Positions 3,802-24,253 of a DNA stretch of 41,257 bases are shown one piece after another (the stretch's first letter is position 1; each line of letters starts with the position of its first letter). Source of the stretch: an uncultured Mageeibacillus sp. (GTDB taxonomy: Bacteria > Bacillota > Clostridia > Saccharofermentanales > DTU023). The notes below the pieces were generated by a model. The model was not told the origin of the DNA. It searched no databases and was given only the letters and a program-made list of their open reading frames with translations. Both the position numbers and the translations under genes were made by a program. The stretch spans positions 1-41,257 of the forward strand of contig CAZBOM010000001.1 in NCBI GenBank assembly GCA_964493375.1, given 5' to 3'.

Positions 3802-5241
3802 TTAAAAAGTATTTTTATTCTCTTTTTCTGTGGCGACCGGATCGCCCGAAGTATTACCTGTTCGGAGTGTCAGCGTGTAGTCGTAGTTTTTATTCAGCTT
3901 AAAAATCTCACTTGTACCGCTCGATTTAAGGCGCTGATAGACACCCTCTTCTCCGAACATTTCGTTCTCGCCAAACCAATTCCCGAATCCAAAGGCTGAC
4001 TTAAAAATGTAACTTCCAGGCGGCAATTTAACTTTTACCGAATCACCCTTATTGATGAAGATCACTGAGACGAGCGTCGTGCCATCTTGATCGTAGATCT
4101 TGAAATACGTTGAACTGCCGTCATTTGCAGGCGGTTTAATGAGAAGCGAGCAACCGGACCCTTTATACGCGCTGTTGCGGAATAACTCACCGGTACTCGG
4201 TTTCGCCACGATGCAATTACCAGCCATATCCGCGGCATCTTTGAAGTTTCCAAGCGCTGTAAACTCTTTATAGGCATCGTACTTTTTACCGCTTTCAAAC
4301 ATGGTCTTCGCGGCTAAATAGAGCGGCATGTTCCGGCACTCATGGCGTAAATCCTCCACGTCGGGGAACTTCTCTTGGTCGAGATTGTTCAACGATTTAA
4401 GCGCCTCTTCGTAGTGACCATTCTCAATCAAAGAGATCGCTTTCTGGTAATCTTTATGATCGCGACAAAGCTTTACCATCTCACGCGCGTCTTTGTAATC
4501 TCCCGCCTTCACGAAAGATTCTTCAGCCTTCGCATAAAGACCTTTATCAAAATGCGCTTTCCCCTCGTTATAAGACATGATTGATTTCGCTTCGGCGGCT
4601 AGTTTATCAGAATCCTTAAACGAACTAATTTCTGCGAACAGACTGATCGCCTTTTGGTATTCCCCACTTTTCATCAGACGCTTGGCGTCGTCATATGTCA
4701 TGGTTTTCTTCGCGAAAGCCGCCATATTCTCGGAATCATCAAAAGCTCCGAGAGCCTCAAAGACTTCCTGAGCTCCTTTATAATCACCTTTTTCGAGCAA
4801 TGTCACGCCCTCGTTATACTTGTTCTGTTTCGCATTGTGTAAAAATACGGGAACAAGAATCGCCGCGGCGATGACAATGAGCGCCACACCGGCCATCACG
4901 AGATATTTTGTTTTGCGGCGTGGTTTTTTTGTCGCGTCATCGCGAGACGGTATCGGCTCGACGATTGGCGAAACAATCTCACCATAAGACATGGGCGCCA
5001 TAGGTTGATAAGCCACACCTTCATATTCAAATGCTTCTGTTTGTTGATGATTTCCTCCGTTATCTGAAAACAGCCTTGGCTCGACGGTAGGCGAAACAAC
5101 CTCATGGACTGTCATGGGCGCTACCGGCGGGGGCATCTCGACACCGTATTCAGGTGCATCAATTTCTTCACGTTTCTCACCGCAAAAAGGGCAAAACATG
5201 GTCCCTTCGAGCATCTCTTTTCCGCAATTGGCACAATACAT
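3802..5241 (-). CDS. Zinc-ribbon / single-TM / TPR-like repeat membrane protein
   Basis: The ORF track gives 3802..5364, but the likely start is Met42 (ATG at 5241), which is preceded by a GAGGG SD. The N-terminus MYCANCGKEMLEGTMFCPFCGEK is a CxxC...CxxC zinc ribbon. It is followed by a TM helix (YLVMAGVALIVIAAAILVPVFL), repeated G.Y..A...F..LG.FKDS helical repeats and a C-terminal beta-rich domain. Confidence 0.65.
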   Translation of the reverse strand: MYCANCGKEMLEGTMFCPFCGEKREEIDAPEYGVEMPPPVAPMTVHEVVSPTVEPRLFSDNGGNHQQTEAFEYEGVAYQPMAPMSYGEIVSPIVEPIPSRDDATKKPRRKTKYLVMAGVALIVIAAAILVPVFLHNAKQNKYNEGVTLLEKGDYKGAQEVFEALGAFDDSENMAAFAKKTMTYDDAKRLMKSGEYQKAISLFAEISSFKDSDKLAAEAKSIMSYNEGKAHFDKGLYAKAEESFVKAGDYKDAREMVKLCRDHKDYQKAISLIENGHYEEALKSLNNLDQEKFPDVEDLRHECRNMPLYLAAKTMFESGKKYDAYKEFTALGNFKDAADMAGNCIVAKPSTGELFRNSAYKGSGCSLLIKPPANDGSSTYFKIYDQDGTTLVSVIFINKGDSVKVKLPPGSYIFKSAFGFGNWFGENEMFGEEGVYQRLKSSGTSEIFKLNKNYDYTLTLRTGNTSGDPVATEKENKNTF

Positions 5242-5486
5242 GGGCGACCCTCGCTTTCTATCTGAAACACATCTATTTTCTGAACTCAAAAACTGGCTCC
5301 AGAAACTCTTCTGAAGCCAGTATAGTTTCAGGTTGAGACCGAGGTGTCTGCGCGATGCATACATCGCAGGCTTTTTTATCGATTGTTTATGTCAGTGAAA
5401 AACTTGAGTGAGAAGCGATGGTAAAACGAGCGCACGATCATCTGCTTGATTCAATGCTAGAGGGCTGTCATGAAATAAAACTGACG

Positions 5487-5534
5487 CCATGGCAAACTCA
5501 TGGGCGAACACCATGGCAAGCTCATGGGCGAACA
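5487..5534. repeat. Tandem direct repeat, 2 x 24 nt (ccatggcaaRctcatgggcgaaca), one mismatch
   Basis: Read directly: 5487-5510 and 5511-5534 are identical except for an a/g difference at unit position 10. The repeat is intergenic, between the pseudokinase stop (5570) and the zinc-ribbon gene start (5241). Confidence 0.9.
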
Positions 5535-5569
5535 TGATGAATCACATTTTATAGGATTAAACAAAACGG

Positions 5570-7138
5570 TTATGGCATAACTCGCTCATTATCGGAGCCA
5601 TCGATGCGAACACGCCAGAGGTGACCACCGTCCTCTTCGTTTTGATAGAAAATCCACCGCCCCACAATGTTAAACGGGCCTGTCTTCGTTGTGAGAATGG
5701 AATAGTGAACTCTCCCGTCCAGCGAAGTCCATTCAAGCGTCTTTCGATTGCCGGCGACATAAAAGATTCCCGCCGGCGTGACATTGATGTAATACGCCGG
5801 TTTGTTGGTGTATCTTTTGATATTGCCGCCATCTAAATCCATGCTGATCAGAAAACTCGCCGAATCATTGAGCACCTTTCGATCGGCATCTCGATTACTC
5901 GCGACATATGCGTAAATCCTGTTTTCGTAGATACAGAACCATTCACAACTATCACTGTTCAAGAGTTCCATGTTACTGCCATCCAGGTTACATCGGTACA
6001 AATTGTAGTCATTTTCCGGAGATGCGAAATACAGTTGTTTTCGCACAATATCGAGACAACCGTATGCCGTCATGCTATTGAGTTGTTTGACAGTCCCCGA
6101 TGGCGCGTGTACCTGGTAAAGATATCCGTGATCACGTGTCGTGTCGAGGAAGAATTCTCCGTCGATAATATAGAGCAATCCCGAGTGCGTATCGCAGAAT
6201 ATTTCGCTTTTCATCGATGTGGGGTCAATTCGATAAATTTTCTTATTCGATGCATAGTAAAGCCAACCGTCATAGTAGTTGAGAGCTTCCGCACCGGCGT
6301 TCTCAGCAAGCAGCTGAATCTCTCTCGAAAACGGATCCATGCGGTAGATGCTCCCGCGATCGATGAAAAAGATCTCGTGCTTGCTTCGTGCCGCGAAAGC
6401 ACCGCCTGCTGCCGTCAAATTGCCGGGGAGATTGCCCCTTTCCTGAGTGAAAGGCGTCTCAACCATACCGATTCCGCGCGCATCTTGAAATCCCACGTCA
6501 TAACCGGTCGCGTAACCTGATCTATATCCCGATTCTTTTTTTTCGATTTCTCCTTTATCCCTTCCTCTATAAAAGAAATGAATCGATAAACCGGTCGCGA
6601 TACTGAGAATGACGACTCCCAACAACCCGAATACGAGTTTCTTCGTATTTCTTCTCTTTCTCTTGATCAAAAGTGACAAGTCTCTTATATTTTGAACGCG
6701 TGCGCGCGGATCAAAAGCCGTACAGCACTCAATCACCTCGCGAAGCCTTTTATCCTCTACTTGCGTGTCTAGCTTCGTCTTATTCTCATACCCCGTCGCC
6801 ATGAAGAGCATCATCATGCCCAGTGAATACACAAGAGCGTCAGCTTTCTTCGTGTTCGCTCGGTCATACTCCGGAGGTGAATACAGCTCACTCTCATACA
6901 ATGGCACGCGTGTCCTTTTTAAAGAAATGGTTCCATCTTGTTTCATCATGACAAGCTGCGGATGTAAGATCGCGTCAAACGGTTCGCGAGCATCTTTGTT
7001 CGCATCTTCCACTATTTTGCAAATTTTTTGAACCGTGGAAAAAATGTCCTTTGGACGCATCACGCCTTCTTCGGTCACGATGTCAAAGATAGAACGCTCT
7101 TTTTTCCCATCCCATGAATAAGTCGATTTAGCGCTCAT
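5570..7138 (-). CDS. Truncated pseudokinase (C-lobe only) - TM - DUF5050-like beta-propeller protein
   Basis: The track ORF is 5570..7147 (GTG), but the ATG at 7138 has a strong AAGAGGTGA SD that overlaps the upstream gene's stop. Residues about 18-160 align with the C-lobe of the upstream kinase (LFMATG, C.AFDP..R), but HRDIKPQN is replaced by LHPQLVMM and DFG by SLK, and there is no N-lobe. A TM helix (LVFGLLGVVILSIATGL) follows, then repeats of the LYRCNLDGSNMELL / WRVRIDGSDNERV type. Confidence 0.75.
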   Translation of the reverse strand: MSAKSTYSWDGKKERSIFDIVTEEGVMRPKDIFSTVQKICKIVEDANKDAREPFDAILHPQLVMMKQDGTISLKRTRVPLYESELYSPPEYDRANTKKADALVYSLGMMMLFMATGYENKTKLDTQVEDKRLREVIECCTAFDPRARVQNIRDLSLLIKRKRRNTKKLVFGLLGVVILSIATGLSIHFFYRGRDKGEIEKKESGYRSGYATGYDVGFQDARGIGMVETPFTQERGNLPGNLTAAGGAFAARSKHEIFFIDRGSIYRMDPFSREIQLLAENAGAEALNYYDGWLYYASNKKIYRIDPTSMKSEIFCDTHSGLLYIIDGEFFLDTTRDHGYLYQVHAPSGTVKQLNSMTAYGCLDIVRKQLYFASPENDYNLYRCNLDGSNMELLNSDSCEWFCIYENRIYAYVASNRDADRKVLNDSASFLISMDLDGGNIKRYTNKPAYYINVTPAGIFYVAGNRKTLEWTSLDGRVHYSILTTKTGPFNIVGRWIFYQNEEDGGHLWRVRIDGSDNERVMP

Positions 7139-7143
7139 CACGA

Positions 7144-10100
7144 TCACCTCTTCTTTTGGAGTTGGTGGTCATTGGTGCCATCTAAACGAACACACCATAG
7201 ACGTCCGCCGTCATCATCATTGTGGTAAAAAATCCATTCGCCTGCGATATTAAAATCAATCGCACGACTTGACGTGATTTTGCTCCTATATTGACCGTCT
7301 AAAGAACACAGGTGAATCGTCTCCTCAAAGCGATCGATATAATAGATACCTCGACCCGTCACATTGATCATCGAAGCGCTCAATTCGGCGATAAAAGTCG
7401 TGTTACCTGTATTCGCGTCGACGCGAATCAACTCCTCATGGCCATTTTTTACCGTGGAGCAATAGATATCCCCTTCAAACAAGCAGACATTTTTGCACTC
7501 GCCATCGAGTAACCGCCTTACTTTGAAACTATTGATATCCATACTGTAGAGAGCGCTGTCTTTTCCGTATACAAATACGATTTTATCCTTGTCAACATTA
7601 ACCCATCGACAAGGGAAAAGGTCACTCCGCTTTTTAATACTGCCGTCGGCAATATCGAGAGAATAAAATCCATCCTCTCCGGCGATATAGTATTTCGAGT
7701 TCACAAGATGAAGTTTGCCCACCATGTCTTCGCGCAGAATATCGCGATCTAATGTATAGATGTTTGTTTGCATAATCTTTGAGCCGGAAGAATAGTAAAG
7801 CCACCCATTCATGTAGCTCAGCGCTTGCGCGTTTTGGCCGCGCACGATCACATCTCCCTCCGTCCCCTTTTCAGACATTTTGATGATGTCACCGTCGAGA
7901 ACATAAAAAACTGAATCGGCACCTTGCGCCGCAAAAGCGCCACCTTCAATCGCCATGTTACCGGGTCGATTGCCGCGCGTAGCATCTTCGTCCATATCGC
8001 CGATTTTGACAATGGGAGCATCTTCATACCCATCGACATATCCGATGTCAAAGCCGCTCTTATAACCTACTTGCACTCCTTTGTCTTTTCCCAGCTTGTT
8101 TCCAATACCGTAGGATAACAACGAAGGTAGCACCATCATGGTGACAAGACAGGCGGCGATCGCGATTCTTCGACTCGTTCTTCGGTGAGATTTCTCTCTC
8201 GTAATGAAATGGTCAATCACCTCGACGCTCTGGATGCGAGACTTCGGGTCAAAGGCGATGCATCGCTCAATCAAATTGCGCAATCGGTTATTCACGACTT
8301 TCGCCTCTAAATCTGATCGCGAAACATGCCCGGTTGCCATGAAAAGTATGACGACACCTAATGAATAGATATCGGTCAACGGTGACGTTTGCTCAAAACC
8401 GAATTGCTCCGGAGGCGCGTAGTCTAGCGTGAGCACGACCGATGTATCTTGCGTGCTCTCCTCTTTATGGACACGCGATATCCCGAAATCAATCAAGTGA
8501 ATACTTCCGTCATATCCCACAATGATATTCTGCGGTTTGATGTCGCGATGAATGACGGGAGGCGTTTGCGCGTGGAGATAACGGAGAATTTCCGTTATTT
8601 TAAGTACGACTCCAAAAATATCTTTTACACTTAGCACGCCTTTGGCTCTGACAATATCGTAGAGCGATCGCCCTGCGATGTATTCGCGGACAATATATTT
8701 CTTGCCGTCTTTTTCATAAGTTTCGAACACTTTTGGAATGCCGGGGTGGTCAAATGAACTTAAGATTTTCGCTTCTTCCAGAGCGTCTTCTTCGGGGTAA
8801 TCTTTTGTGACGCGGAGAATAGCCTTGATACCATCTTGCTTTCGTCTCAAAAGATAGATTTCTTTTTTGCCATTTTCGTCTTTTCGAATACAACTTTCAA
8901 AAGCGTAACGGTGAATCAACGCCTCCGGCATCCCTTCACAAGAGATCGTTTCATTAAGCGTTGCGTTATAAGCATTCAAGAAACTGTTGACATCACTGCC
9001 GAAATACTCGGGGTTTGATGAAGGGATAATTTTTGGCGATGACACTTGCATAGGCTCTCTCCCTTTCGCTCGACTCGGAGCCAAGCTTATTATGCGTTGC
9101 GAACTATTGATTGGCGCTAACTGAACTATTGTCCTCGGACGGATGCCACTGAACAGCTGAGGCGTCAGCAACACAGGGGCAAGAACTGTTCCAAACAGAA
9201 TGTAACAGTAGATGATGATGGTGACGGGGGCAATTCCTTTCCTTGTGATTAAGAAGAGACCTCGGTCTATACAAAGAACGGCGATCAATAGGAAACCTTT
9301 GTTTTTGCGCACAAATTCCGCAATCAATCGTAAGCCTTCCGTAAATCGCCCGTCGAGCTCATCGACACTCGTCGAAGGGAACGATTTCATGTTGAGTTTT
9401 ATTTTGTTGGCTAAATAACGACATGCTCCCGCGAGCATGGAGAACGCGTGACCGACAAAGGAGATGGCGACAATAACGGTGTGTGGAAATTTTTCTATCT
9501 TATCCTCAGGGAATCGGCTGCGCATCACAAATCCGCGTATACAAGGAAGAATCACAAAAAAGACATTACAGGTAATAAACCCCGCCCACAAGAGATGTAT
9601 ATTCCCAAAATAGCATTCGAGCAATACAGTCGGGATGAGCATGATCTCATTGATGATCGAGAAAAAATACAAGAACATATAAAACGCGTCGCATTTTCGT
9701 GTTCTCCCGAGAACAATCGTGCCGTCAAAAATCATCTCAAACAACCCATACGAATATCGATGTTGTTTCCCCGTTTCCTCGGCAAATGTTCGGCTCACAT
9801 ATTCGGTAAACTCGAGACCGTTTAGCTGAGCGTATTTCCCGTGATACCCCATATTGTAAAAACCGATCGCTTTATCAAAATCCTCGGAGACTTTGTTTTC
9901 GGACCAAAGCCCGCTTTTTTCCAAAATACTCTTTCTGATAAAAGCGTTATGTCCCACCAGAGGGACAAAGAACCCTTGGAGCGCTTTACATGGCCAAATA
10001 TTGTGAAAGAGATTGTTCGTCTGGTGTCCTGTCGCATAAGAAAAATAATTGTCCGACATATTAATCGCGACGGTCGCGCATTGTATATAGGCGAGTTTGT

Positions 10101-10974
10101 CATCGGATGCGAATTCGGGGACGACCGCCTCAATTATCTTCTCTTTGACGCCGGAATCTTTGTCCAGCAAAAGAATTATTTCTCGAGTCTCAATATCGCC
10201 TTCGGCATACCCTCCTTCGAACGTGCCGCCCGCGCGCGTCAAATCACCGAGAGCATTCCCCTGGACTGTCGCATTGCCAAGTCGAATCGTGTAATTAAGA
10301 TTGGAAGCTTTCTTGAAAAGACCTGCACGCCCTTGAGCCGGTCTCACAACAAAAGCGACACCTGATCGCCTGTAAAATGCGATGCGCTCAGCCGCTTTCA
10401 TTTCTTTCTCAGAAAGTTGATTTGAATTACTCGAGAATCGATGCATCAGATCATCCGCGATATCACGTGAGCAGATACCACCCAATAACGGTGCGAGACC
10501 ATCATCGGACACGATGATGTTGGCCGATAGACCGCTGTATTGTTGATAGCGTTTCGCGGCCGCGATACTACCGCGAATCGTCTCAAAGATGACGGCATTC
10601 TCTTCAGTGTATACGGGGATACTGATGGTGACAGGAAAATACGAGGAACGCTCAACCTCACTTCTCGCGACATTCATATAATGCTTTCTATTAATTCGCG
10701 TAACCCCTGAGAGAATATCGCAGACGGAAGGTCGCAAAGACCAGAGAACATCAGCCAAATAATAAAACGGATAAATAAAAAAAATAAAAGATACTAGCAA
10801 TCGAAATAAGCTCTGGATCGACATGCCATACAGAAAAAACAATCCTACATGGATGAAGGCATTAAGTGCGAGCGAAGCAACATATGGCCATACGCCGCAA
10901 ATACCGTTCCCGAGTGTCTCCGGTATTCTCTTCGCCCGTCTCGTTCGGTTTTTCTTCACCCTGATCATCGCCAT
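7144..10974 (-). CDS. Multidomain membrane protein: cellulose-synthase-like family-2 glycosyltransferase + Hanks-type Ser/Thr protein kinase + extracytoplasmic DUF5050-like beta-propeller
   Basis: 1276-aa ORF. GT2 motifs are DDG (157-159), KKASNLN (221-227), DKD (271-273), SED (363-365) and QHRYS (404-408), followed by a multi-TM bundle (about 425-605). The kinase carries HRDIKPQN (809-816), DFG (829-831) and APPE (853-856). A TM helix spans about 936-955, and propeller-type repeats run to residue 1270. Confidence 0.8.
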   Translation of the reverse strand: MAMIRVKKNRTRRAKRIPETLGNGICGVWPYVASLALNAFIHVGLFFLYGMSIQSLFRLLVSFIFFIYPFYYLADVLWSLRPSVCDILSGVTRINRKHYMNVARSEVERSSYFPVTISIPVYTEENAVIFETIRGSIAAAKRYQQYSGLSANIIVSDDGLAPLLGGICSRDIADDLMHRFSSNSNQLSEKEMKAAERIAFYRRSGVAFVVRPAQGRAGLFKKASNLNYTIRLGNATVQGNALGDLTRAGGTFEGGYAEGDIETREIILLLDKDSGVKEKIIEAVVPEFASDDKLAYIQCATVAINMSDNYFSYATGHQTNNLFHNIWPCKALQGFFVPLVGHNAFIRKSILEKSGLWSENKVSEDFDKAIGFYNMGYHGKYAQLNGLEFTEYVSRTFAEETGKQHRYSYGLFEMIFDGTIVLGRTRKCDAFYMFLYFFSIINEIMLIPTVLLECYFGNIHLLWAGFITCNVFFVILPCIRGFVMRSRFPEDKIEKFPHTVIVAISFVGHAFSMLAGACRYLANKIKLNMKSFPSTSVDELDGRFTEGLRLIAEFVRKNKGFLLIAVLCIDRGLFLITRKGIAPVTIIIYCYILFGTVLAPVLLTPQLFSGIRPRTIVQLAPINSSQRIISLAPSRAKGREPMQVSSPKIIPSSNPEYFGSDVNSFLNAYNATLNETISCEGMPEALIHRYAFESCIRKDENGKKEIYLLRRKQDGIKAILRVTKDYPEEDALEEAKILSSFDHPGIPKVFETYEKDGKKYIVREYIAGRSLYDIVRAKGVLSVKDIFGVVLKITEILRYLHAQTPPVIHRDIKPQNIIVGYDGSIHLIDFGISRVHKEESTQDTSVVLTLDYAPPEQFGFEQTSPLTDIYSLGVVILFMATGHVSRSDLEAKVVNNRLRNLIERCIAFDPKSRIQSVEVIDHFITREKSHRRTSRRIAIAACLVTMMVLPSLLSYGIGNKLGKDKGVQVGYKSGFDIGYVDGYEDAPIVKIGDMDEDATRGNRPGNMAIEGGAFAAQGADSVFYVLDGDIIKMSEKGTEGDVIVRGQNAQALSYMNGWLYYSSGSKIMQTNIYTLDRDILREDMVGKLHLVNSKYYIAGEDGFYSLDIADGSIKKRSDLFPCRWVNVDKDKIVFVYGKDSALYSMDINSFKVRRLLDGECKNVCLFEGDIYCSTVKNGHEELIRVDANTGNTTFIAELSASMINVTGRGIYYIDRFEETIHLCSLDGQYRSKITSSRAIDFNIAGEWIFYHNDDDGGRLWCVRLDGTNDHQLQKKR

Positions 10975-10981
10975 CTATCCA

Positions 10982-12256
10982 TTATTTTCCAAATGGATTT
11001 GCCTTCATTTGCGCGAGCGCATACCAACTCGTCGCACTGATACTCTGTTGATTGTGATACTCCCAAAGGACTTTTGAACCACTCACATAAAAGCCTGTTG
11101 AGACACCGTCTCTATCGGCGGCGGGGATGCTCCCATCACGCGCTTCCTGAGTTTTCAAATAGAGGATTTTCGAATCGTATTTTTCCGATTCGCCAAGCTC
11201 ACTGTAACAAAGAGCCATTTGGGCTGTTCCTTCATTCCATATGCCATCTAAGTCTCCGGCACTAAAATCAAATCCGGCCCCTATAGACATCCTGTCTTCG
11301 ACAAACGAAATAATTTTATGCGCGTTGAAAAGTTCCTCGCGAAGCGCCAGAATAGCCAGCGAATTGGAGTCTAAGGGAATAACGCCTTTACTGATTGTCT
11401 TTCCATCTTTCTCAGTGCCGGTATAAAAGCAATGAAATTTGTCATCATACATGGAGAGGACGAAAGACTTCGCGTGGTCGGATGCCTCGAAATAGACGGC
11501 CGCTTTTGTCGGATCACTTTCTTTAATCGCGCCGGCCATCACGTTGAATGCTCGGATCAGGTCAATGTTGTGCTCTGTTGATTTGTAATCAACTTTTATC
11601 TGGTCGTTATCCCATCCTTCATAGCCGGCCGTAAAACCTCCCGTTGACGATTTTAATGTCAAAACAAAATCGGCCGCTCGGACGGCTGCATCAAGATACT
11701 CCGTTTTCTTGTCTACCGATGCATTTTCGGCAGCCTTACAAAGAGCCAATATGGACCACGCCATATTACCTGTCGACGTCGAAACGGTGTAATAATCCTC
11801 CTGCCAACGACCTGATTGCCAAAAACCGGGAAGCCTTATCGTCACTTTCCCACCTGTGATGGAGCGTCCCGAATCGCTTCGTGGATCACCGCTCGTGTAG
11901 GCATTCCGAAATCGCCCGTCTTTGAACAACCGGTCGTGATCTTGGGCAAACACGAGCACATCGGCCAATTTTTGTACGTGCCATACGGCTCCCGCTTCTG
12001 ATAACGCGATCAAGGCCATAGCATTGTCATATATATATGCATGGTCCGAAGGACCGCCCTTACTTTCATCAACGCTCGCAATAAAACCGCCGCTCTCTTC
12101 CACACAACCGGCGAGAAATCCGGCGGCAGAAGATACATTTCTTATGTCATTTGCCGCCGGTTTAATCTCTTCACTACCACGGCATCCCGTGATTGTTAAT
12201 AAAAAAATAAAGATCAAGGATAGCGCGATCCTTCTCTGTCTCGCTGTATTTTTCAT
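10982..12256 (-). CDS. Secreted lipoprotein with predicted (alpha/alpha)6-toroid fold (glycoside-hydrolase-like or terpenoid-cyclase-like)
   Basis: The track ORF starts at a TTG (12268), whereas the ATG at 12256 follows a GGAGG SD. The signal peptide plus lipobox reads MKNTARQRRIALSLIFIFLLTITGC. Hairpin-helix signatures recur: YDNAMALIAL, GNMAWSILAL, EHNIDLIRAF, DSNSLAILAL, NEGTAQMALCY, SATSWYALAQ. Only 7 nt separate it from the synthase-kinase gene. Confidence 0.6.
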   Translation of the reverse strand: MKNTARQRRIALSLIFIFLLTITGCRGSEEIKPAANDIRNVSSAAGFLAGCVEESGGFIASVDESKGGPSDHAYIYDNAMALIALSEAGAVWHVQKLADVLVFAQDHDRLFKDGRFRNAYTSGDPRSDSGRSITGGKVTIRLPGFWQSGRWQEDYYTVSTSTGNMAWSILALCKAAENASVDKKTEYLDAAVRAADFVLTLKSSTGGFTAGYEGWDNDQIKVDYKSTEHNIDLIRAFNVMAGAIKESDPTKAAVYFEASDHAKSFVLSMYDDKFHCFYTGTEKDGKTISKGVIPLDSNSLAILALREELFNAHKIISFVEDRMSIGAGFDFSAGDLDGIWNEGTAQMALCYSELGESEKYDSKILYLKTQEARDGSIPAADRDGVSTGFYVSGSKVLWEYHNQQSISATSWYALAQMKANPFGK

Positions 12257-12299
12257 ACAGACCTCCAAGTGCTCAGCAGAAATGACTCGTCGTCTTTAA

Positions 12300-12363: not shown

Positions 12364-12822
12364 TCAGTCGTTCTCCGTCCCGTCGTCCAAGGGCGCTAAT
12401 TGCAACGTTCGCATAAACTCATAAGTATCAATGATGTCATAGCCGTGGTTAATCGCGAAAATGATCGCGGCATCTCGTTTGATGAGAGGATGTAAAGCCC
12501 CGGAATGTGTGACGGCCAACATGCGTTGCGTTGTCTTCAAATCGAGAGACATGGCGATCGCAATTAAAAGATAATAATCTCTTTTCCCCAGCCTTCGCCC
12601 CTCCATAATCTGATAACCATACGTGCGCGACAAATTAGCTTTGCGAATGACTTCGCTTTTCTTTTGTCCTGTCTGCGTGAGCAGGTCATCAAAAAAAGCC
12701 CGGATATCATCATCCAGAAAAGCGTCCCAATGTTGTGGGAAAGAGTCGCCTTTCAGTTGTTCTTGCATGAGTTTTGTGTCTAAAGGATTTTTCGGACGAC
12801 TTTGATCGTTCATCTGACTCAT
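12364..12822 (-). CDS. Small helix-turn-helix (XRE-like) protein
   Basis: 152-aa ORF. The central segment KKSEVIRKANLSRTYGYQIMEGRRLGKRDYYLLIAIAMSL looks like an HTH followed by helices. The family assignment is from memory only. Confidence 0.5.
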   Translation of the reverse strand: MSQMNDQSRPKNPLDTKLMQEQLKGDSFPQHWDAFLDDDIRAFFDDLLTQTGQKKSEVIRKANLSRTYGYQIMEGRRLGKRDYYLLIAIAMSLDLKTTQRMLAVTHSGALHPLIKRDAAIIFAINHGYDIIDTYEFMRTLQLAPLDDGTEND

Positions 12823-19181: not shown

Positions 19182-19221
19182 AATGATGTAAAACACAAAA
19201 TTGATCATTGGACGACAACAT

Positions 19222-21312
19222 ATGAAACGAACTAATTATTGCGGACTTTTTTCAGAGCAGGACGTCGGGAAACAGACGACAGCCTGCGGTTGGGTTGAGA
19301 CGAAACGCGATATGGGCGGCGTGATCTTCATTGATCTCGTCGACCGCGAAGGCGTACTTCAGATCGTCTTCAATCCGGCGTATACAGATCCTGAAGCATT
19401 TGCTCTCGCCGAGCGCGTCAGAAATCAATCAACACTTTTGGTTGAAGGGACGATGTTCCTCCGCGATGAGGAGACGGTCAACCCGAAGATCGCGACGGGA
19501 ACGGTTGAATTGCGTGTGACGCGAGCCGATCTACTTTCCACTTGTGGCGATCTCCCCTTTAACCCCGCCGAAGCGGACGATGTGAGAGAGGACTTGCGCC
19601 TGCGTTATCGTTATCTCGATTTGAGACGCAAGCGTCTGCGCGATAATATCCGCTTTCGTCATCGCGTCACATCGGCCATTCGTCGATTCATGGATGGCGA
19701 AGGGTTTGTCGATATCGAGACACCGATTCTGACGAAGAGCACCCCGGAAGGCGCGCGCGACTATCTCGTTCCGAGCCGTGTCCACCCCGGTTCTTTCTAC
19801 GCTCTGCCGCAGTCTCCGCAAATATTCAAACAACTTCTGATGGTGTCGGGATTCGATCGCTATTACCAGATCGCGCGTTGCTTCCGCGACGAAGATCTTC
19901 GAGCCGACCGACAACCTGAATTCACACAGCTCGACTTGGAAATGTCTTTCATCGAGATGGAAGATATTCTCTCAACACTCGAGAACTTATTCCGATCTGT
20001 TATGGCGGAAGTAAAAGGCATCGAATTTGATGAACCTTTCCCGCGCTTCACTTGGGCTGAGGCGATGGATCTCTACGGCAGTGACAAACCTGATCTGCGC
20101 TTTGACCTGCCTATCGTCGATATCACCGATATTGCGGCGACATCGGGATTCTCTGTGTTTACTAAAGTAGTCGAAGCCGGCGGTGTCGTTCGCGCCATCA
20201 ACGTGCCGGGACAATCCGACTTCACACGCGCCACCATTAATGAACTGACGGATTTCGCGATTTCCGAAGGTGCCGGCGGCATGGCGTGGATCGCTTGGCG
20301 TCCATCGGGTGAAATCTACTCCATTTTGACAAAATTCGTCGATGAGAAAAACATGCTTGCACTGCTTGAGCGCGTCGGTGCCAAGCCGGGCGATTTCGTT
20401 TTATTCTCAGCCGATAAACTCGATGTCGTCCGCCGCGTCTCCGGTGCGCTTCGACTCCGACTCGGTGAGATGCTGGGACTTCGCGATCCGAACAAATTCG
20501 CCTTCGCAATCGTCACTGAATTCCCCATGTTCGAATTCAATGAAGAAGAAGGACGATATACGGCGCAACACCACCCATTCACCATGCCGTTCGAGGAAGA
20601 TCTCGATTATCTCGTTTCCGATCCGCCGCGCGTTCGATCACAAGCTTATGATTTCGTTTTGAACGGAACAGAGCTCGGATCAGGTAGCATTCGTATACAC
20701 CGCGGCGACATCCAACGACGCGTTTTCCAAGCGTTGGGACTCGGCGAGAAAGATATTGAGGAACGCTTTGGCTTCATGATCAACGCGTTTGCTTATGGCG
20801 CGCCACCGCACGGCGGGTTTGCGTTCGGACTTGACAGACTCGTCATGATTCTCGCGGGCGAGCAATCACTCCGCGATGTCATCGCATTCCCGAAAATACG
20901 CGATGCCTCTTGCCCGATGACGGAAGCGCCGACACCTGTCGCCGATGACCAGCTTGAAGCGCTCGGCATCCGCCTCGTCGATTCCGTGCGATCGGAGATG
21001 GGACGTCCCGTCAGCCGGGAAGAAAAACGGCGGACGGAACTCGATATCAAACGATTAACCGGTGATTCCCGCCTCATTTTATCCGCGGAAGAAGAAGACG
21101 GTATGCGCGACAGCTTGCTCGAACTGATTTCTTTTGCCGATGCGCTCCACGAGATTGATACAGAGGGAGTTGACCCTACCTTCACTTCTTCTGAAGCACA
21201 TGATGTCTGGCTCACACCGCGCGATGATCGCGCGTTATCGGCAGAGGACGCGCTCGCCAACGCGCCGGACTCTCGAGAGCCGTTCTTTTTCGTGCCGCCC
21301 GTCGTTGAGTGA
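19222..21312 (+). CDS. aspS: Aspartate--tRNA ligase (bacterial type with GAD insertion) fused in frame to a C-terminal GatC domain
   Basis: The track ORF starts at a TTG (19201), but the canonical AspRS N-terminus MKRTNYCG begins at the ATG at 19222. Class II motifs are present (FRDEDLRADRQPEFTQLD, GSGSIRIH, GLDRLVM). The protein is about 110 aa longer than a typical bacterial AspRS, and the tail aligns with GatC (see next feature). Confidence 0.9.
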   Translation: MKRTNYCGLFSEQDVGKQTTACGWVETKRDMGGVIFIDLVDREGVLQIVFNPAYTDPEAFALAERVRNQSTLLVEGTMFLRDEETVNPKIATGTVELRVTRADLLSTCGDLPFNPAEADDVREDLRLRYRYLDLRRKRLRDNIRFRHRVTSAIRRFMDGEGFVDIETPILTKSTPEGARDYLVPSRVHPGSFYALPQSPQIFKQLLMVSGFDRYYQIARCFRDEDLRADRQPEFTQLDLEMSFIEMEDILSTLENLFRSVMAEVKGIEFDEPFPRFTWAEAMDLYGSDKPDLRFDLPIVDITDIAATSGFSVFTKVVEAGGVVRAINVPGQSDFTRATINELTDFAISEGAGGMAWIAWRPSGEIYSILTKFVDEKNMLALLERVGAKPGDFVLFSADKLDVVRRVSGALRLRLGEMLGLRDPNKFAFAIVTEFPMFEFNEEEGRYTAQHHPFTMPFEEDLDYLVSDPPRVRSQAYDFVLNGTELGSGSIRIHRGDIQRRVFQALGLGEKDIEERFGFMINAFAYGAPPHGGFAFGLDRLVMILAGEQSLRDVIAFPKIRDASCPMTEAPTPVADDQLEALGIRLVDSVRSEMGRPVSREEKRRTELDIKRLTGDSRLILSAEEEDGMRDSLLELISFADALHEIDTEGVDPTFTSSEAHDVWLTPRDDRALSAEDALANAPDSREPFFFVPPVVE
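21037..21309 (+). other. gatC: GatC-homologous domain forming the C-terminus of the AspRS polypeptide
   Basis: ELDIKRLTGDSRLILSAEEEDGMRDSLLELISFADALHEIDTEGVDPTF...SAEDALANAPDSREPFFFVPPVVE aligns along its full length with B. subtilis GatC (recalled sequence ...[41 protein letters not shown]...[20 protein letters not shown]). There is no stop codon between the AspRS core and this domain. Confidence 0.8.
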
Positions 21313-21326
21313 GAAGGGAAACTGAG

Positions 21327-22799
21327 ATGGACTATCAAACAATGCAATTGAAACAATTGGCGGAAGGATTACGAGCACGCGAATTTTCTTCGAGAGAACT
21401 CACGGAATCTGTCTTTGCGACCATTGAAAAAAACGACCCGACCATAGGCGCTTATATCACACTGACGCGCGATTATGCTCTAAAGCAGGCCGATCGAGTC
21501 GATGAGCTTCTGGCTGAGGGGTTGGCACTCCCCGCTCTCGCCGGTATTCCCGGAGCACTCAAAGATAACATCGCGACTTCGGGAATCCGAACAACCAACG
21601 CTTCAAAGATGCTCGCCGATTTCATTCCGCCTTATGACGCGTTCGTTTGGAGACTGCTCCGACAACAAGAAATGGTGCTCTTGGGCAAACTCAATATGGA
21701 TGAGTTCGCCATGGGACATTCGACGGAAACGTCGGCGTTTCATCTGACTCGCAACCCGTATGACACGACGCGCGTACCCGGTGGCAGCTCCGGTGGCTCG
21801 GCGGCGGCCGTCGCATCGGGCGAAGCTTTTTTTGCTCTCGGCTCCGATACGGGTGGATCGATACGACAACCGGCCTCTCTCTGTGGGATCGTTGGGATGC
21901 GCCCTACTTACGGTCTCGTCTCGAGGCGCGGCGTGACGACATTCTCTTCTTCTCTCGATCAAGTCGGTCCCATGACGAGAAGCGTTCGCGACAACGCCTT
22001 ATTGCTCGACACGATTGCCTTTTTCGACTACAAGGACGCGCAGATGGTCAAGCGACCGGACGGCTCTTATGTCGAGGCGATTGAGAAGCCTCTCGGTCAA
22101 CCTGTGATCGGCTGGCCTCAATCATATTTTGAAACAGACGATTTGCTCGATGAAGTCAAAGAACAACTTGAAAAAGCGCGCGACTTTTACGAATCGATCG
22201 GCACCCGTATTGTTCCGATTGATCTCAAAACACTTGACGCCTGCATGGCCGGCTATTACATCATCTCGAGCGCCGAAGGCTATTCAAGTATGAACCGCTA
22301 CGATGGCATCCACTTCGGCTATCGAAGTGATAAGGGCGAGACACTCGAAGAAATCTATGTTCATTCGCGCTCGGAAGGTCTCGGCGCCGAAGTCAAACGT
22401 CGTATCCTGTTAGGTTGCTTCGCGCTCTCACAGGAAAATTTCGACGACTATTTCTTAAAGGCGGCAAAAGCCCGCACCATCGTCATCCGCGAATTCGAAG
22501 AGATCTTTGAGACTTGCGACGCGATCCTCACGCCTGTCACGGCGACACCGGCATGGCCTCTCGGCACACACCCGGAAGATTTGGGGGGCAACAAATACAG
22601 CAACGATCGCTTCACCTTGCCACCATCACTCACCGGCATGCCGGCGCTGGCGATTCCCGCAGGATTGACGAAAGAAGGTCTTCCTGTCGGAATGCAACTG
22701 ATAGGACCGCGCTTTTCAGAAGGCATGCTCTATAAACTCGCAGCCGCTTTTGAAGACGCGCACGGGTTATTACCCCTGCCAACGGAGGTGAAAGCATGA
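21327..22799 (+). CDS. gatA: Asp-tRNA(Asn)/Glu-tRNA(Gln) amidotransferase subunit A
   Basis: It carries the amidase signature [12 protein letters not shown]...[12 protein letters not shown]. The ATG at 21327 lies 14 nt after the aspS stop and has an AAGGGA SD; the track ORF begins upstream at 21309. Confidence 0.9.
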
Positions 22800-24253
22800 G
22801 TATCCACGATTATGAAAGTGTGATCGGCCTCGAAGTTCACGTCGAGTTGAATACAAAACATAAAGCCTTTTGCGAATGTTCGACAACCTTTGGAGCACCT
22901 CCTAATTCACAAGTATGTCCTGTTTGTCTCGCGATGCCCGGAGCGCTCCCCGTTCTGAATCGCGAAGTCGTCGATTTTGCCATTATGGCCGGTTTGGCAA
23001 CACACTGCACGATCGAACCGACCTCGCGCTTCGATCGCAAGAATTATTTCTACCCGGACCTTCCGAAGGCATACCAGACGACACAGAATGACTATCCCAT
23101 TTGCACGAACGGTTATGTCGATGTGGCGAGCAGTGATTGCCAAGAAAATGATTCCGAGGGTTGTGTCGCCGGTATGCGACGCATCAGAATCTCGCAAATC
23201 CATATGGAAGAAGACGCCGGCAAACTGATTCACCACACCGACGGGACAGAGATCGATTGCAATCGTTGCGGTGTGCCTCTGCTCGAGATTGTCTCCGAAC
23301 CCGATGCGCGCTCAGCCGAAGAAGCCGTCGCCTATCTTCGCAAATTGAGAGCGATGGTTCGCTATACCGGTATTTCCGATGGCAAGATGAACGAAGGATC
23401 GCTTCGATGCGATGTCAACTTGTCGATTCGCAAAAAAGGTGAATCAACTTACGGGACGCGCGTCGAGATCAAAAACATCAACTCCTTTAACTTTGTCGCT
23501 CGAGCCATTGAAAGCGAATTCAAACGTCAAGTCGAGCTCCTCGAAGAAGGCGAAAGAATCGTCCAAGAGACTCGTCGATTCGATGAAAAGACAGGCCAAA
23601 CGTATTCGATGCGGTCGAAAGAAAACGCCGCCGATTACAGATACTTCCCCGACCCCGATCTCGTTCCCGTCCGCGTCACAGACGAAGAGATTGAAGCCAT
23701 TCGAAAGACGATCCCGCGCATGGCGGACGAGCGACGAGCCATCTACACCGACACTTATGAACTGACACCTTACGAAGCGGAGCGTCTGACAGAAGACAAG
23801 GAGATGAGCGATTTCTTCGAAAAAGCCGTCACGCACACGAGCTACCCGAAAACGCTCGTCAACCTCATCCTCGCCGATATCTCGCCTCTCTTCACTGAAG
23901 ATACGGTCGAGATCCCGGTCAACCCCGCAAGCTTAGGCGCGCTGGCTGACCTGCTCGGACAAGATGAGATCAACAGCAATACGGGCCGTCGCATCTTAAA
24001 ATCTCTCTTAGAGAAAGATTTCGATCCCAAGGATTACGTGCGAGAGCACAATCTCGCCCAGATCAACGATCGCGATGCTTTACAACCGGCCGTTCAAGCC
24101 GCCATCGCCGCTCATGAGCGTGCCGTCAAAGATTATCTCGGCGGCAAAGAAGCGGCTCTTCGAGCGGTCATCGGTTTTGTCATGAAAGAGACGCAAGGCC
24201 GAGCTAACCCCGTTCTCGTCGAAGCGATGATCCGCGAAGCCATCTCGAAATGA
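22796..24253 (+). CDS. gatB: Asp-tRNA(Asn)/Glu-tRNA(Gln) amidotransferase subunit B
   Basis: 485 aa, with IGLEVHVELNT, CPVCLAMPGALPVLN and HMEEDAGKL. An ATGA overlap joins it to gatA. Confidence 0.9.
   Translation: MSIHDYESVIGLEVHVELNTKHKAFCECSTTFGAPPNSQVCPVCLAMPGALPVLNREVVDFAIMAGLATHCTIEPTSRFDRKNYFYPDLPKAYQTTQNDYPICTNGYVDVASSDCQENDSEGCVAGMRRIRISQIHMEEDAGKLIHHTDGTEIDCNRCGVPLLEIVSEPDARSAEEAVAYLRKLRAMVRYTGISDGKMNEGSLRCDVNLSIRKKGESTYGTRVEIKNINSFNFVARAIESEFKRQVELLEEGERIVQETRRFDEKTGQTYSMRSKENAADYRYFPDPDLVPVRVTDEEIEAIRKTIPRMADERRAIYTDTYELTPYEAERLTEDKEMSDFFEKAVTHTSYPKTLVNLILADISPLFTEDTVEIPVNPASLGALADLLGQDEINSNTGRRILKSLLEKDFDPKDYVREHNLAQINDRDALQPAVQAAIAAHERAVKDYLGGKEAALRAVIGFVMKETQGRANPVLVEAMIREAISK

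Follow-up and report, generated by a model that had tools for sequence, protein, structure and literature searches.

A kinase C-lobe-like paralog encoded directly behind a glycosyltransferase–kinase–propeller gene in an uncultured Mageeibacillus

The K–P locus and its junction

The window analysed here, the whole 41,257-nucleotide stretch at positions 1 to 41,257 of contig CAZBOM010000001.1 (assembly GCA_964493375.1) from an uncultured Mageeibacillus sp., carries two adjacent minus-strand genes, termed K and P, that are the subject of this study. Gene K (7144–10974) encodes a protein of 1276 amino acids (aa) in which Pfam recognises Glyco_trans_2_3 at residues 266–475, Pkinase at 718–922 and DUF5050 at 1100–1274, an architecture of GT2 glycosyltransferase (GT) synthase, transmembrane (TM) helices, Hanks-type kinase, a further TM helix and a DUF5050 propeller. 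Gene P (5570–7138; ATG at 7138–7136, TAA stop at 5572–5570) encodes a 522-aa protein made up of a C-lobe-only kinase paralog, a TM helix and a DUF5050 propeller, as judged from its open reading frame (ORF), ATG start, orthologs and BLASTP comparison with K. An earlier interpretation made from the letters of the window (the sequence-only reading) had given P these same limits, to which we add that P and K both lie on the minus strand. Public records label P a 'DUF5050 domain-containing protein' and each of the two neighbours upstream of it a 'hypothetical protein'.

The start of P lies next to the stop codon of K. Read directly from the minus strand, the junction (7136–7152) is AGAGGTGATCGTGATG: K ends in the codons CAA AAG AAG AGG TGA, and TCGTG separates these from the ATG of P, which falls 5 nucleotides (nt) past the TGA. 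As the sequence-only reading had noticed, the stop codon is contained in the Shine-Dalgarno (SD) sequence of P, the TGA being enclosed by GAGGTGATC, a 9-nt match to the extended SD sequence. A GTG at 7147 that overlaps the K stop was considered as the start of P and is disfavoured because the N-termini of the orthologs (MxxKPxFxW) align with the ATG at 7138. The frame of P cannot be extended further 5', since it closes about 25 nt upstream of the stop of K. With a 5-nt gap and an SD lying across the stop of K, the two genes have the geometry of a translationally coupled pair, and the sequence places P in the transcript region of K with a start apparently sited for ribosome re-initiation at the K stop. 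The same arrangement, with the K stop inside or next to a GGAGG-type SD and the start of P 0–14 nt further on, recurs at 16 of the 17 genome loci with a readable junction, so the coupling geometry that had been read from this one locus is a feature of the family.

The kinase domain of K occupies residues about 686–925 (8200–8919, minus strand). On the same strand are its beta3 segment AILRVT with R721 (8806–8823; R721 at 8812–8814), HRDIKPQN (8527–8550), DFG (8482–8490) and YAPPE (8407–8421). HRD, DFG, the catalytic-loop Asn and the Glu of alpha-C are retained in K, whose activation loop is of the PknB-like TQ(D)T type; HRD and DFG are intact in 88 of 88 K homologs.

In P, a kinase C-lobe-like domain (residues about 13–160; 6659–7102) is followed by a TM helix at residues 168–190 (6569–6637), placed by reading the sequence and lying within a longer helix of the structural model described below. 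A basic cluster, KRKRRNTKK, precedes this helix, so P would be oriented N-in and the Gly/Tyr-rich (GY-rich) segment that follows would be extracytoplasmic. By family consensus this juxtamembrane segment (6488–6553) has a period-4 Gly/aromatic pattern (G...G...GY..GY..GY..GF), within which G208, Y209, G212, Y213 and G216 are invariant in the ortholog alignment. Both families carry such a motif outside the TM helix, GY..GY..GY.DGY in K and G...G...GY..GY..GY..GF.DAPGIG in P, and its spacing can be read as glycine-zipper-like and suited to helix–helix packing. The sequence-only reading had set the segments side by side as juxtamembrane (GYRSGYATGYDVGF versus GYKSGFDIGYVDGY); they are indeed present in P and K, the TM helix and propeller are likewise retained, and we can now place the segment on the extracytoplasmic side. 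The remainder of P is the DUF5050 beta-propeller (residues about 232–520; 5579–6445), which matches PF16472 with E = 1.3e-30 and 107 bits against a threshold of 27 bits, and so belongs to the DUF5050/LRP1-like family. It is modelled with a pLDDT mostly of 85–94, and its top Foldseek match is 3s25, a DUF5050-type seven-bladed propeller from Eubacterium rectale (target-normalised TM-score, TMt, 0.73).

Relationship of P to the rear half of K

A single colinear BLASTP alignment joins P to the rear of K (P residues 9–523 with K residues 752–1272, 30% identity, E = 7e-78; the P coordinates here count from the GTG at 7147, and subtracting 3 gives those of the protein that starts at the ATG at 7138). 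The C-lobe was also recovered by itself, K residues 771–930 giving 33.5% identity to P over 158 aa by tblastn (E = 9e-24), and the motifs from which the sequence-only reading had deduced colinear similarity (SIFDIV/SLYDIV, KDIF, LFMATG and AFDP..R) are all present. Comparison of 19 P N-terminal domains with 14 K kinase domains by hhalign gave a probability of 100% and E = 4e-41. In this alignment P residues 13–164 pair with K columns 110–273 only, leaving the K N-lobe (columns 1–109) unmatched, and a deletion of 12 residues in P coincides with DFG and the beginning of the activation segment. A PDB search with the P profile, which does not involve K, identified Mycobacterium tuberculosis PknB (E = 3.6e-9; P 16–112 with PknB 104–213), and this match begins right after the hinge.

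Structural models gave the same picture. The AlphaFold2 model of full-length P (pLDDT 81) has a C-lobe, a long helix (151–218) running through the membrane and a propeller, and because a Foldseek search with it returned propellers only, the N-terminal domain was modelled separately (pLDDT 86.7, pTM 0.85). Protein kinases then made up 50 of the 50 PDB matches listed, with PknB first, and among these the TM-scores were 0.61–0.75 when normalised by the query (TMq) and about 0.41–0.53 when normalised by the target, as half a kinase domain would be expected to give. Pfam, by comparison, finds DUF5050 alone in P, so that the kinase remnant is invisible to standard annotation. The window protein has no Pkinase hit and does not reach the PF00069 threshold, and weak Pkinase hits were obtained for 8 of the 19 N-terminal domains of the P family (best E = 4.8e-5).

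A motif census covered 20 sequences of K and, from the same set of loci, 18 of P. All 20 K sequences retain HRDxKPQN, DFG, APE, the alpha-F Asp and the subdomain-XI Arg. Among the P orthologs the HRD Asp is retained in one of 18, the catalytic-loop Lys has become His in 17, the catalytic-loop Asn is kept in 11 and DFG is deleted in every one. All 18 retain the KPxN Pro, the APE Pro-Glu, the Gly of alpha-F and the Arg of subdomain XI, and the presence of the APE Glu, alpha-F helix and subdomain-XI Arg, together with the kinase-like model, identifies the domain as having a C-lobe fold. Nine positions are invariant across the P domain (G25, I32, Y104, G107, M110, M113, G116, K120 and R147), and the family alignment contains no invariant Asp. 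In the window protein the corresponding elements, all on the minus strand, are the catalytic-loop relic DAILHPQL (6953–6976), YSPPE (6869–6883), the alpha-F segment VYSLGMMMLFMATG (6791–6832) and AFDPRAR (6698–6718). The sequence-only reading was right that HRDIKPQN and DFG have been lost but misplaced what stands there now: it had aligned LHPQLVMM with the former, for which the true counterpart is DAILHPQL, and SLK with the latter, which instead falls in the 12-residue deletion of the activation segment.

The N-lobe is missing altogether. The alignments of P start past the hinge, at K column 110 and PknB residue 104, and because the N-lobe is absent P has no Gly-rich loop, beta3 Lys, alpha-C helix with its Glu, or hinge, a structure that rules out ATP binding and phosphotransfer. 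The possibility that P is part of a split kinase whose N-lobe is encoded elsewhere in the operon was rejected: tblastn with the K N-lobe found no other N-lobe-like ORF in any locus, beyond that of K itself or of separate complete kinases, and P is without catalytic residues. P is homologous to kinases and lacks all three residues of the triad (VAIK Lys, HRD Asp and DFG Asp) by which a pseudokinase is defined; as it retains just half of the fold, the term 'C-lobe-only kinase-like domain' describes it more precisely. We therefore hold with great confidence to the structural and evolutionary claims, that P is a conserved copy of the rear half of K and a half-kinase without catalytic residues. That P derives from a duplicated receptor that has lost catalysis, as first suggested from the sequence, is borne out by the loss of these residues across the 18 orthologs and by paralogy in both BLASTP and hhalign.

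Conservation of the pair and its neighbouring genes

A first protein search found 20 orthologs of P (490–522 aa, 38–52% identity), and a genome scan that sampled one genome per species found 22 P loci. These were in the Oscillospiraceae, Christensenellaceae, Clostridiaceae, Lachnospiraceae, Tissierellia and Erysipelotrichaceae, with further loci in Peptostreptococcaceae oral taxon 113, a Coriobacteriales isolate and a Fusobacterium metagenome-assembled genome (MAG); the cultured carriers are COT073, Peptostreptococcaceae oral taxon 113 W5053 and Coriobacteriales OH1046. In 22 of the 22 genome loci the gene immediately upstream of P is K, and on contigs that extend far enough the genes form a four-gene block, in the order of a 152-aa protein, a lipoprotein of about 425 aa, K and P. 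The association also holds when approached from K. About 88 homolog clusters have the K architecture, and in six of six loci sampled from these (L032–L035, L038 and L039) P, a DUF5050 protein of 504–522 aa, follows K after 1–18 nt; the sample takes in the most divergent subgroup of K (1170–1200 aa) and a locus in which K is split. The N-terminal domain was checked in four of these six loci, and each matched the P profile (1e-30 to 1e-52) and had a degenerate catalytic loop. The co-occurrence of an HRD- and DFG-bearing kinase with its degenerate partner, on which the sequence-only reading depended, is thus found from both sides.

In the locus with the split gene (L038, 4365–9786), K is divided into a 378-aa GT gene and an 897-aa TM–kinase–propeller gene, with P 5 nt later, and the flanks of the block carry RepA_N, IstB and N6_Mtase genes. 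These flanking genes, together with the spread of the block over Bacillota, Coriobacteriales and a Fusobacterium MAG, point to its horizontal transfer. In a library of 1.84 billion representatives, 12 proteins matched the P N-terminal domain at E <= 1e-30. About 18 P-like proteins of about 500 aa had matches beginning at residues 1–12, and the rest were ordinary kinases matched from about residue 105. Because so few matches start at the first residues, the P family appears small and tied to the K–P operon. Three candidates for new C-lobe-only architectures (P0157, P0172 and P0190) were not counted, as they have strong Pkinase and DUF5050 matches and are most likely fragments of K at contig edges.

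K and P form reciprocally monophyletic clades with largely congruent branching, and the mean identity between K and P is 0.32–0.33 whether the two proteins come from the same genome or from different ones. Both observations argue for one old duplication with no later exchange. The ratio of non-synonymous to synonymous substitution rates (dN/dS), taken from the four closest pairs only since more distant pairs were saturated, was 0.10–0.18 for the P C-lobe, 0.03–0.05 for the K C-lobe and 0.13–0.24 for the propellers. The C-lobe of P is much less conserved than that of K (mean identity 0.45 compared with 0.77), whereas its propeller is slightly more conserved (0.55 compared with 0.48). This pattern of purifying selection in the sequences indicates that P is functional and not a relic.

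The GT2 domain of K gives some indication of what its kinase–propeller region does. A PDB sequence search with the GT region of K found nothing. Relatives of this GT2 domain, P0119–P0125, carry EAL/GGDEF domains in place of the kinase–propeller module. Loci of such GT2-domain relatives include L036 (2360–5944) and L037 (6001–8640); those of the EAL/GGDEF type in Butyrivibrio have sulfatase-type and GDPD neighbour genes, and others have no signalling domain and adjoin a 2544-aa GH94/Glycoamylase protein. This suggests that the GT2 of K belongs to a glucan-type synthase family with exchangeable regulatory modules, and since sister proteins have EAL/GGDEF at the same position, the kinase–propeller region fits the part of a regulatory module of the synthase.

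Of the other genes of the block, the one always found upstream of K encodes a 428-aa lipoprotein-like protein (10982–12268, minus strand) that shares 59–68% identity, across phyla, in all loci with enough upstream DNA. Single sequences and profiles of this protein gave no significant Pfam, NCBIfam or PDB match. Sub-threshold hits of the family were to Pec_lyase (6 of 13 members, best E = 5e-4), GlcNAc_2-epim, GH9 and GH88. The lipoprotein is possibly an alpha/alpha-toroid glycan enzyme, and these faint toroid hits fit a synthase-dependent polysaccharide operon. In one Fastidiosipilaceae/Oscillospiraceae assembly (L003, 3393–6125) the ortholog is split by an insertion sequence element with an rve transposase (4020–5408), and it is intact in the sister assembly L004 (4863–6125). 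The first gene of the block encodes a conserved 152-aa protein (12364–12822, minus strand; 70–80% identity in the loci), which has no Pfam, NCBIfam or PDB match and is helix-turn-helix-like by eye only. In the Ruminococcaceae locus L027 (6075–6992) a stand-alone kinase is immediately preceded by two paralogs of this protein (33% identity), a hint that the kinase and the 152-aa protein may be connected.

Downstream of P, the window encodes a 520-aa protein with a zinc-ribbon, a TM segment and tetratricopeptide (TPR) repeats (3802–5364, minus strand), and most related loci have a homolog downstream of P, anywhere from immediately next to it to about 9 kb off (for example L003/L004, L007, L010–L012, L015, L018, L022 and L024); it may be part of the K–P system. 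Some loci have an extra complete kinase, 36–47% identical to the kinase domain of K, at about 2 kb downstream of P (L009, L010 and L024–L026, at about 11.5–12.4 kb) or about 4.7 kb downstream (L020, at 14.2–15.0 kb). No separate complete kinase of this kind is present in the window. The intergenic region after the P stop (about 5487–5535) contains two tandem 24-nt units, TTCGCCCATGAG(C/T)TTGCCATGG(T/C)G, each of which holds a CCATG/CATGG palindrome; a T-run follows them, and the one terminator-like match is weak. Elsewhere in the window, on the plus strand (19201–24253), an aspartyl-tRNA synthetase (AspRS) has a C-terminal GatC domain (residues 627–698, E = 3.8e-12) and is followed by GatA and GatB with overlapping starts, constituting a fused AspRS–GatC transamidosome gene.

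Possible roles of P and related systems

The sequence-only reading had offered a heterodimerisation partner, a decoy and a second sensor as candidate roles. We propose, with somewhat better than even confidence, that P is a non-catalytic co-receptor in a heteromeric complex with K. One ancient partial duplication copied K from the kinase C-lobe through to the end of the gene, taking in the C-lobe, TM helix, Gly/Tyr zipper-like segment and propeller. The copy lost the N-lobe, and with it any ATP site, as well as the HRD Asp, the catalytic-loop Lys and DFG, while keeping the C-lobe core with its APE Glu–subdomain-XI Arg pair and alpha-F helix. P and K could assemble as a heteromeric membrane receptor through their matching propellers, zippers, TM helices and C-lobes, such that the C-lobe of P would offer a docking surface inside the cell, like that of the animal KIND domain, and its propeller would be a second ligand-binding propeller outside. 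P would in this way tune the kinase output of K and, via K, the fused GT2 polysaccharide synthase. In partial Mantel tests the domain distances of P and K co-varied above the GT-domain baseline (r 0.42–0.70, p <= 0.0012), with a signal as strong as that between domains of one protein; the test is a weak one because phylogenetic non-independence inflates co-variation.

Several findings weigh against the co-receptor model. The GY-motif distances of K and P showed no significant co-variation (partial r 0.14, p 0.19), and the co-occurrence and coupling of the two genes fit any shared function. Tight coupling is also not universal, since the isolate COT073 (L001/L006), the exception among the 17 readable junctions, has a K–P gap of about 90 nt. 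The vestigial alpha-G helix and shortened activation segment of P reveal no docking mode, and between alpha-F and alpha-H the model has just a short helix (120–126). In addition, K itself may, from its sequence, not be a conventional protein kinase: the GxGxxG loop is absent from 87 of the 88 K homologs and the VAIK-Lys position is Arg in 76 and Lys in 12, so that the output modulated by P is uncertain. The usual sequence definition would flag K as atypical, and its description in the sequence-only reading as the active kinase is to be taken as provisional.

Another possibility, which we consider unlikely, is that P serves K chiefly as a substrate or as a pseudosubstrate decoy, with the P C-lobe docked face-to-face on the K active site in the way that one PknB molecule docks on another when they trans-autophosphorylate. 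In that case either the cytoplasmic tail or loops of P would receive phosphate, or P would block K–K trans-activation until a ligand separates the two. Retention of the P+1/APE region (Y86, P89 and E90 are nearly invariant) and of the alpha-F core would suit this, as would the absence from P of the TQDT-type activation-loop threonines present in K, and production at about 1:1 through coupling would suit a stoichiometric inhibitor. However, the cytoplasmic domain of P contains no invariant Ser or Thr, and a propeller and zipper so strongly conserved exceed the needs of a cytoplasmic decoy; on the computational evidence decoy and co-receptor look alike. Conservation of the propeller, the best conserved part of P and above that of K, speaks for a further idea, that P is mainly an extracellular structural partner of the synthase; the paired propellers would act in the manner of a co-polymerase or export scaffold by holding, guiding or measuring the growing polysaccharide, and the C-lobe would be a mere anchoring remnant. 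The block always includes the GT2 synthase domain and the lipoprotein with its faint likeness to alpha/alpha-toroid glycan enzymes, and relatives of the GT domain occur with other signalling modules or none. We nevertheless think a mainly extracellular role quite improbable, as purifying selection on the P C-lobe and its nine invariant positions exceed what a passive anchor needs, and DUF5050 is without a known carbohydrate-binding function.

The partial-duplication origin of P, a C-lobe that evolves about 3–5 times faster than that of K, and a public annotation that shows DUF5050 alone could also suggest that P is a decaying, functionless remnant of a tandem duplication, or an artefact of assembly or gene calling. 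This is extremely improbable and is refuted by conservation: intact ORFs of 490–522 aa are present in the loci examined, including those of all three cultured isolates, the dN/dS values are well under 1, the start keeps its geometry across loci, and reciprocal monophyly of K and P means long co-inheritance.

With the co-receptor model as our preferred reading, P can be set beside known kinase-derived proteins. Receptor kinases of the PknB/StkP type are the closest solved relatives of K and of the P domain and share the layout of kinase, TM helix and extracellular sensor, and K has the TQ(D)T activation loop in common with PknB. In contrast to these kinases, the sensor is a DUF5050 propeller instead of PASTA repeats, K sits behind a GT2 synthase and is without the Gly-rich loop, its beta3 Lys position being mostly Arg, and P lacks half of the domain.

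In MviN of M. tuberculosis (Rv3910; ActPs3) a flippase is followed by a TM helix and an extracellular carbohydrate-binding domain, and EssB, of type VIIb secretion, is a complete two-lobed fold. MviN is described as a cell-wall membrane protein with a dead cytoplasmic kinase-like domain and a carbohydrate-binding domain, which scaffolds by recruiting an inhibitory protein (PMC12599244). The combination of glycan machinery, a Hanks-type module and an outside sensor is in concept the same as in the K–P system. The MviN pseudokinase forms a back-to-back dimer through its N-lobe and is therefore bilobal, according to the same text (PMC12599244), whereas P has no N-lobe, is a separate duplicated polypeptide and is paired with a kinase retaining HRD and DFG. 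EssB/YukC is likewise bitopic, with an N-terminal cytoplasmic dead kinase-derived domain, one TM helix and an extracellular domain, and is a scaffold (PMC3526858; PMC9600267). Unlike P, whose only Pfam match is DUF5050, EssB is not known to be paired with a paralogous kinase.

A bacterial serine/threonine kinase (STK) atlas describes seven pseudokinase families, ActPs1-3, CP1, DYD, DLHK and GLW (10.1101/2025.01.12.632604), which resemble P in being conserved non-catalytic descendants of Hanks-type kinases. These families are defined by catalytic-triad substitutions in a PF00069-homologous domain; P falls below PF00069 detection, so the atlas would have missed it. A word search of this 2025 atlas and of a pseudokinase review found no C-lobe-only form, glycosyltransferase, propeller or DUF5050, and searches of the accessible literature on DUF5050, GT2–kinase fusions and N-lobe-less bacterial kinases turned up no account of the K–P family. 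Kinase-derived non-catalytic modules are a known kind; the C-lobe-only form paired with K is new in the literature searched.

The closest conceptual parallel is the animal KIND domain, a kinase C-lobe that stands alone and serves as a protein-docking module (PMC3415841). Like P it is without an N-lobe and without catalytic residues, and its alpha-G region is reduced or absent (PMC3415841). P too is a stand-alone non-catalytic kinase C-lobe, but the window protein scores 16.6 bits against PF16474, below the threshold of 26.7 bits (E = 0.0071), and only one of 19 family members scores at all. Unlike KIND, P is bacterial, membrane-anchored and equipped with an extracellular propeller, and it is closest to its operon partner K (33% identity) and then to PknB-type bacterial kinases. 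P is accordingly best regarded, on these sequence comparisons, as a convergent analogue of KIND with an independent origin and not as a member of that family.

It is conceivable, although we regard this as doubtful, that the four-gene block represents an unrecognised class of synthase-dependent polysaccharide system in which a K–P receptor replaces the EAL/GGDEF (c-di-GMP) modules, the propellers are sensors of the product or of some cue at the surface, and the C-lobe of P is the first prokaryotic stand-alone docking C-lobe.

Non-catalytic relatives of kinases are central regulators in eukaryotes and have barely been explored in bacteria. The P family differs from the pseudokinases of the atlas in that it is a half-domain undetected by standard domain searches, and it is always found directly after its paralogous kinase, which is itself fused to a membrane glycosyltransferase. 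From its sequence, P appears to be a counterpart in bacteria of the KIND domain of animals, overlooked by public annotation, and the KIND solution, in which a C-lobe becomes an autonomous module, has then evolved at least twice. Present in cultured oral isolates, K–P is a compact and genetically tractable system that can be used to study the regulation of a kinase by an isolated C-lobe and the connection of Ser/Thr signalling to polysaccharide synthesis in Gram-positive anaerobes.

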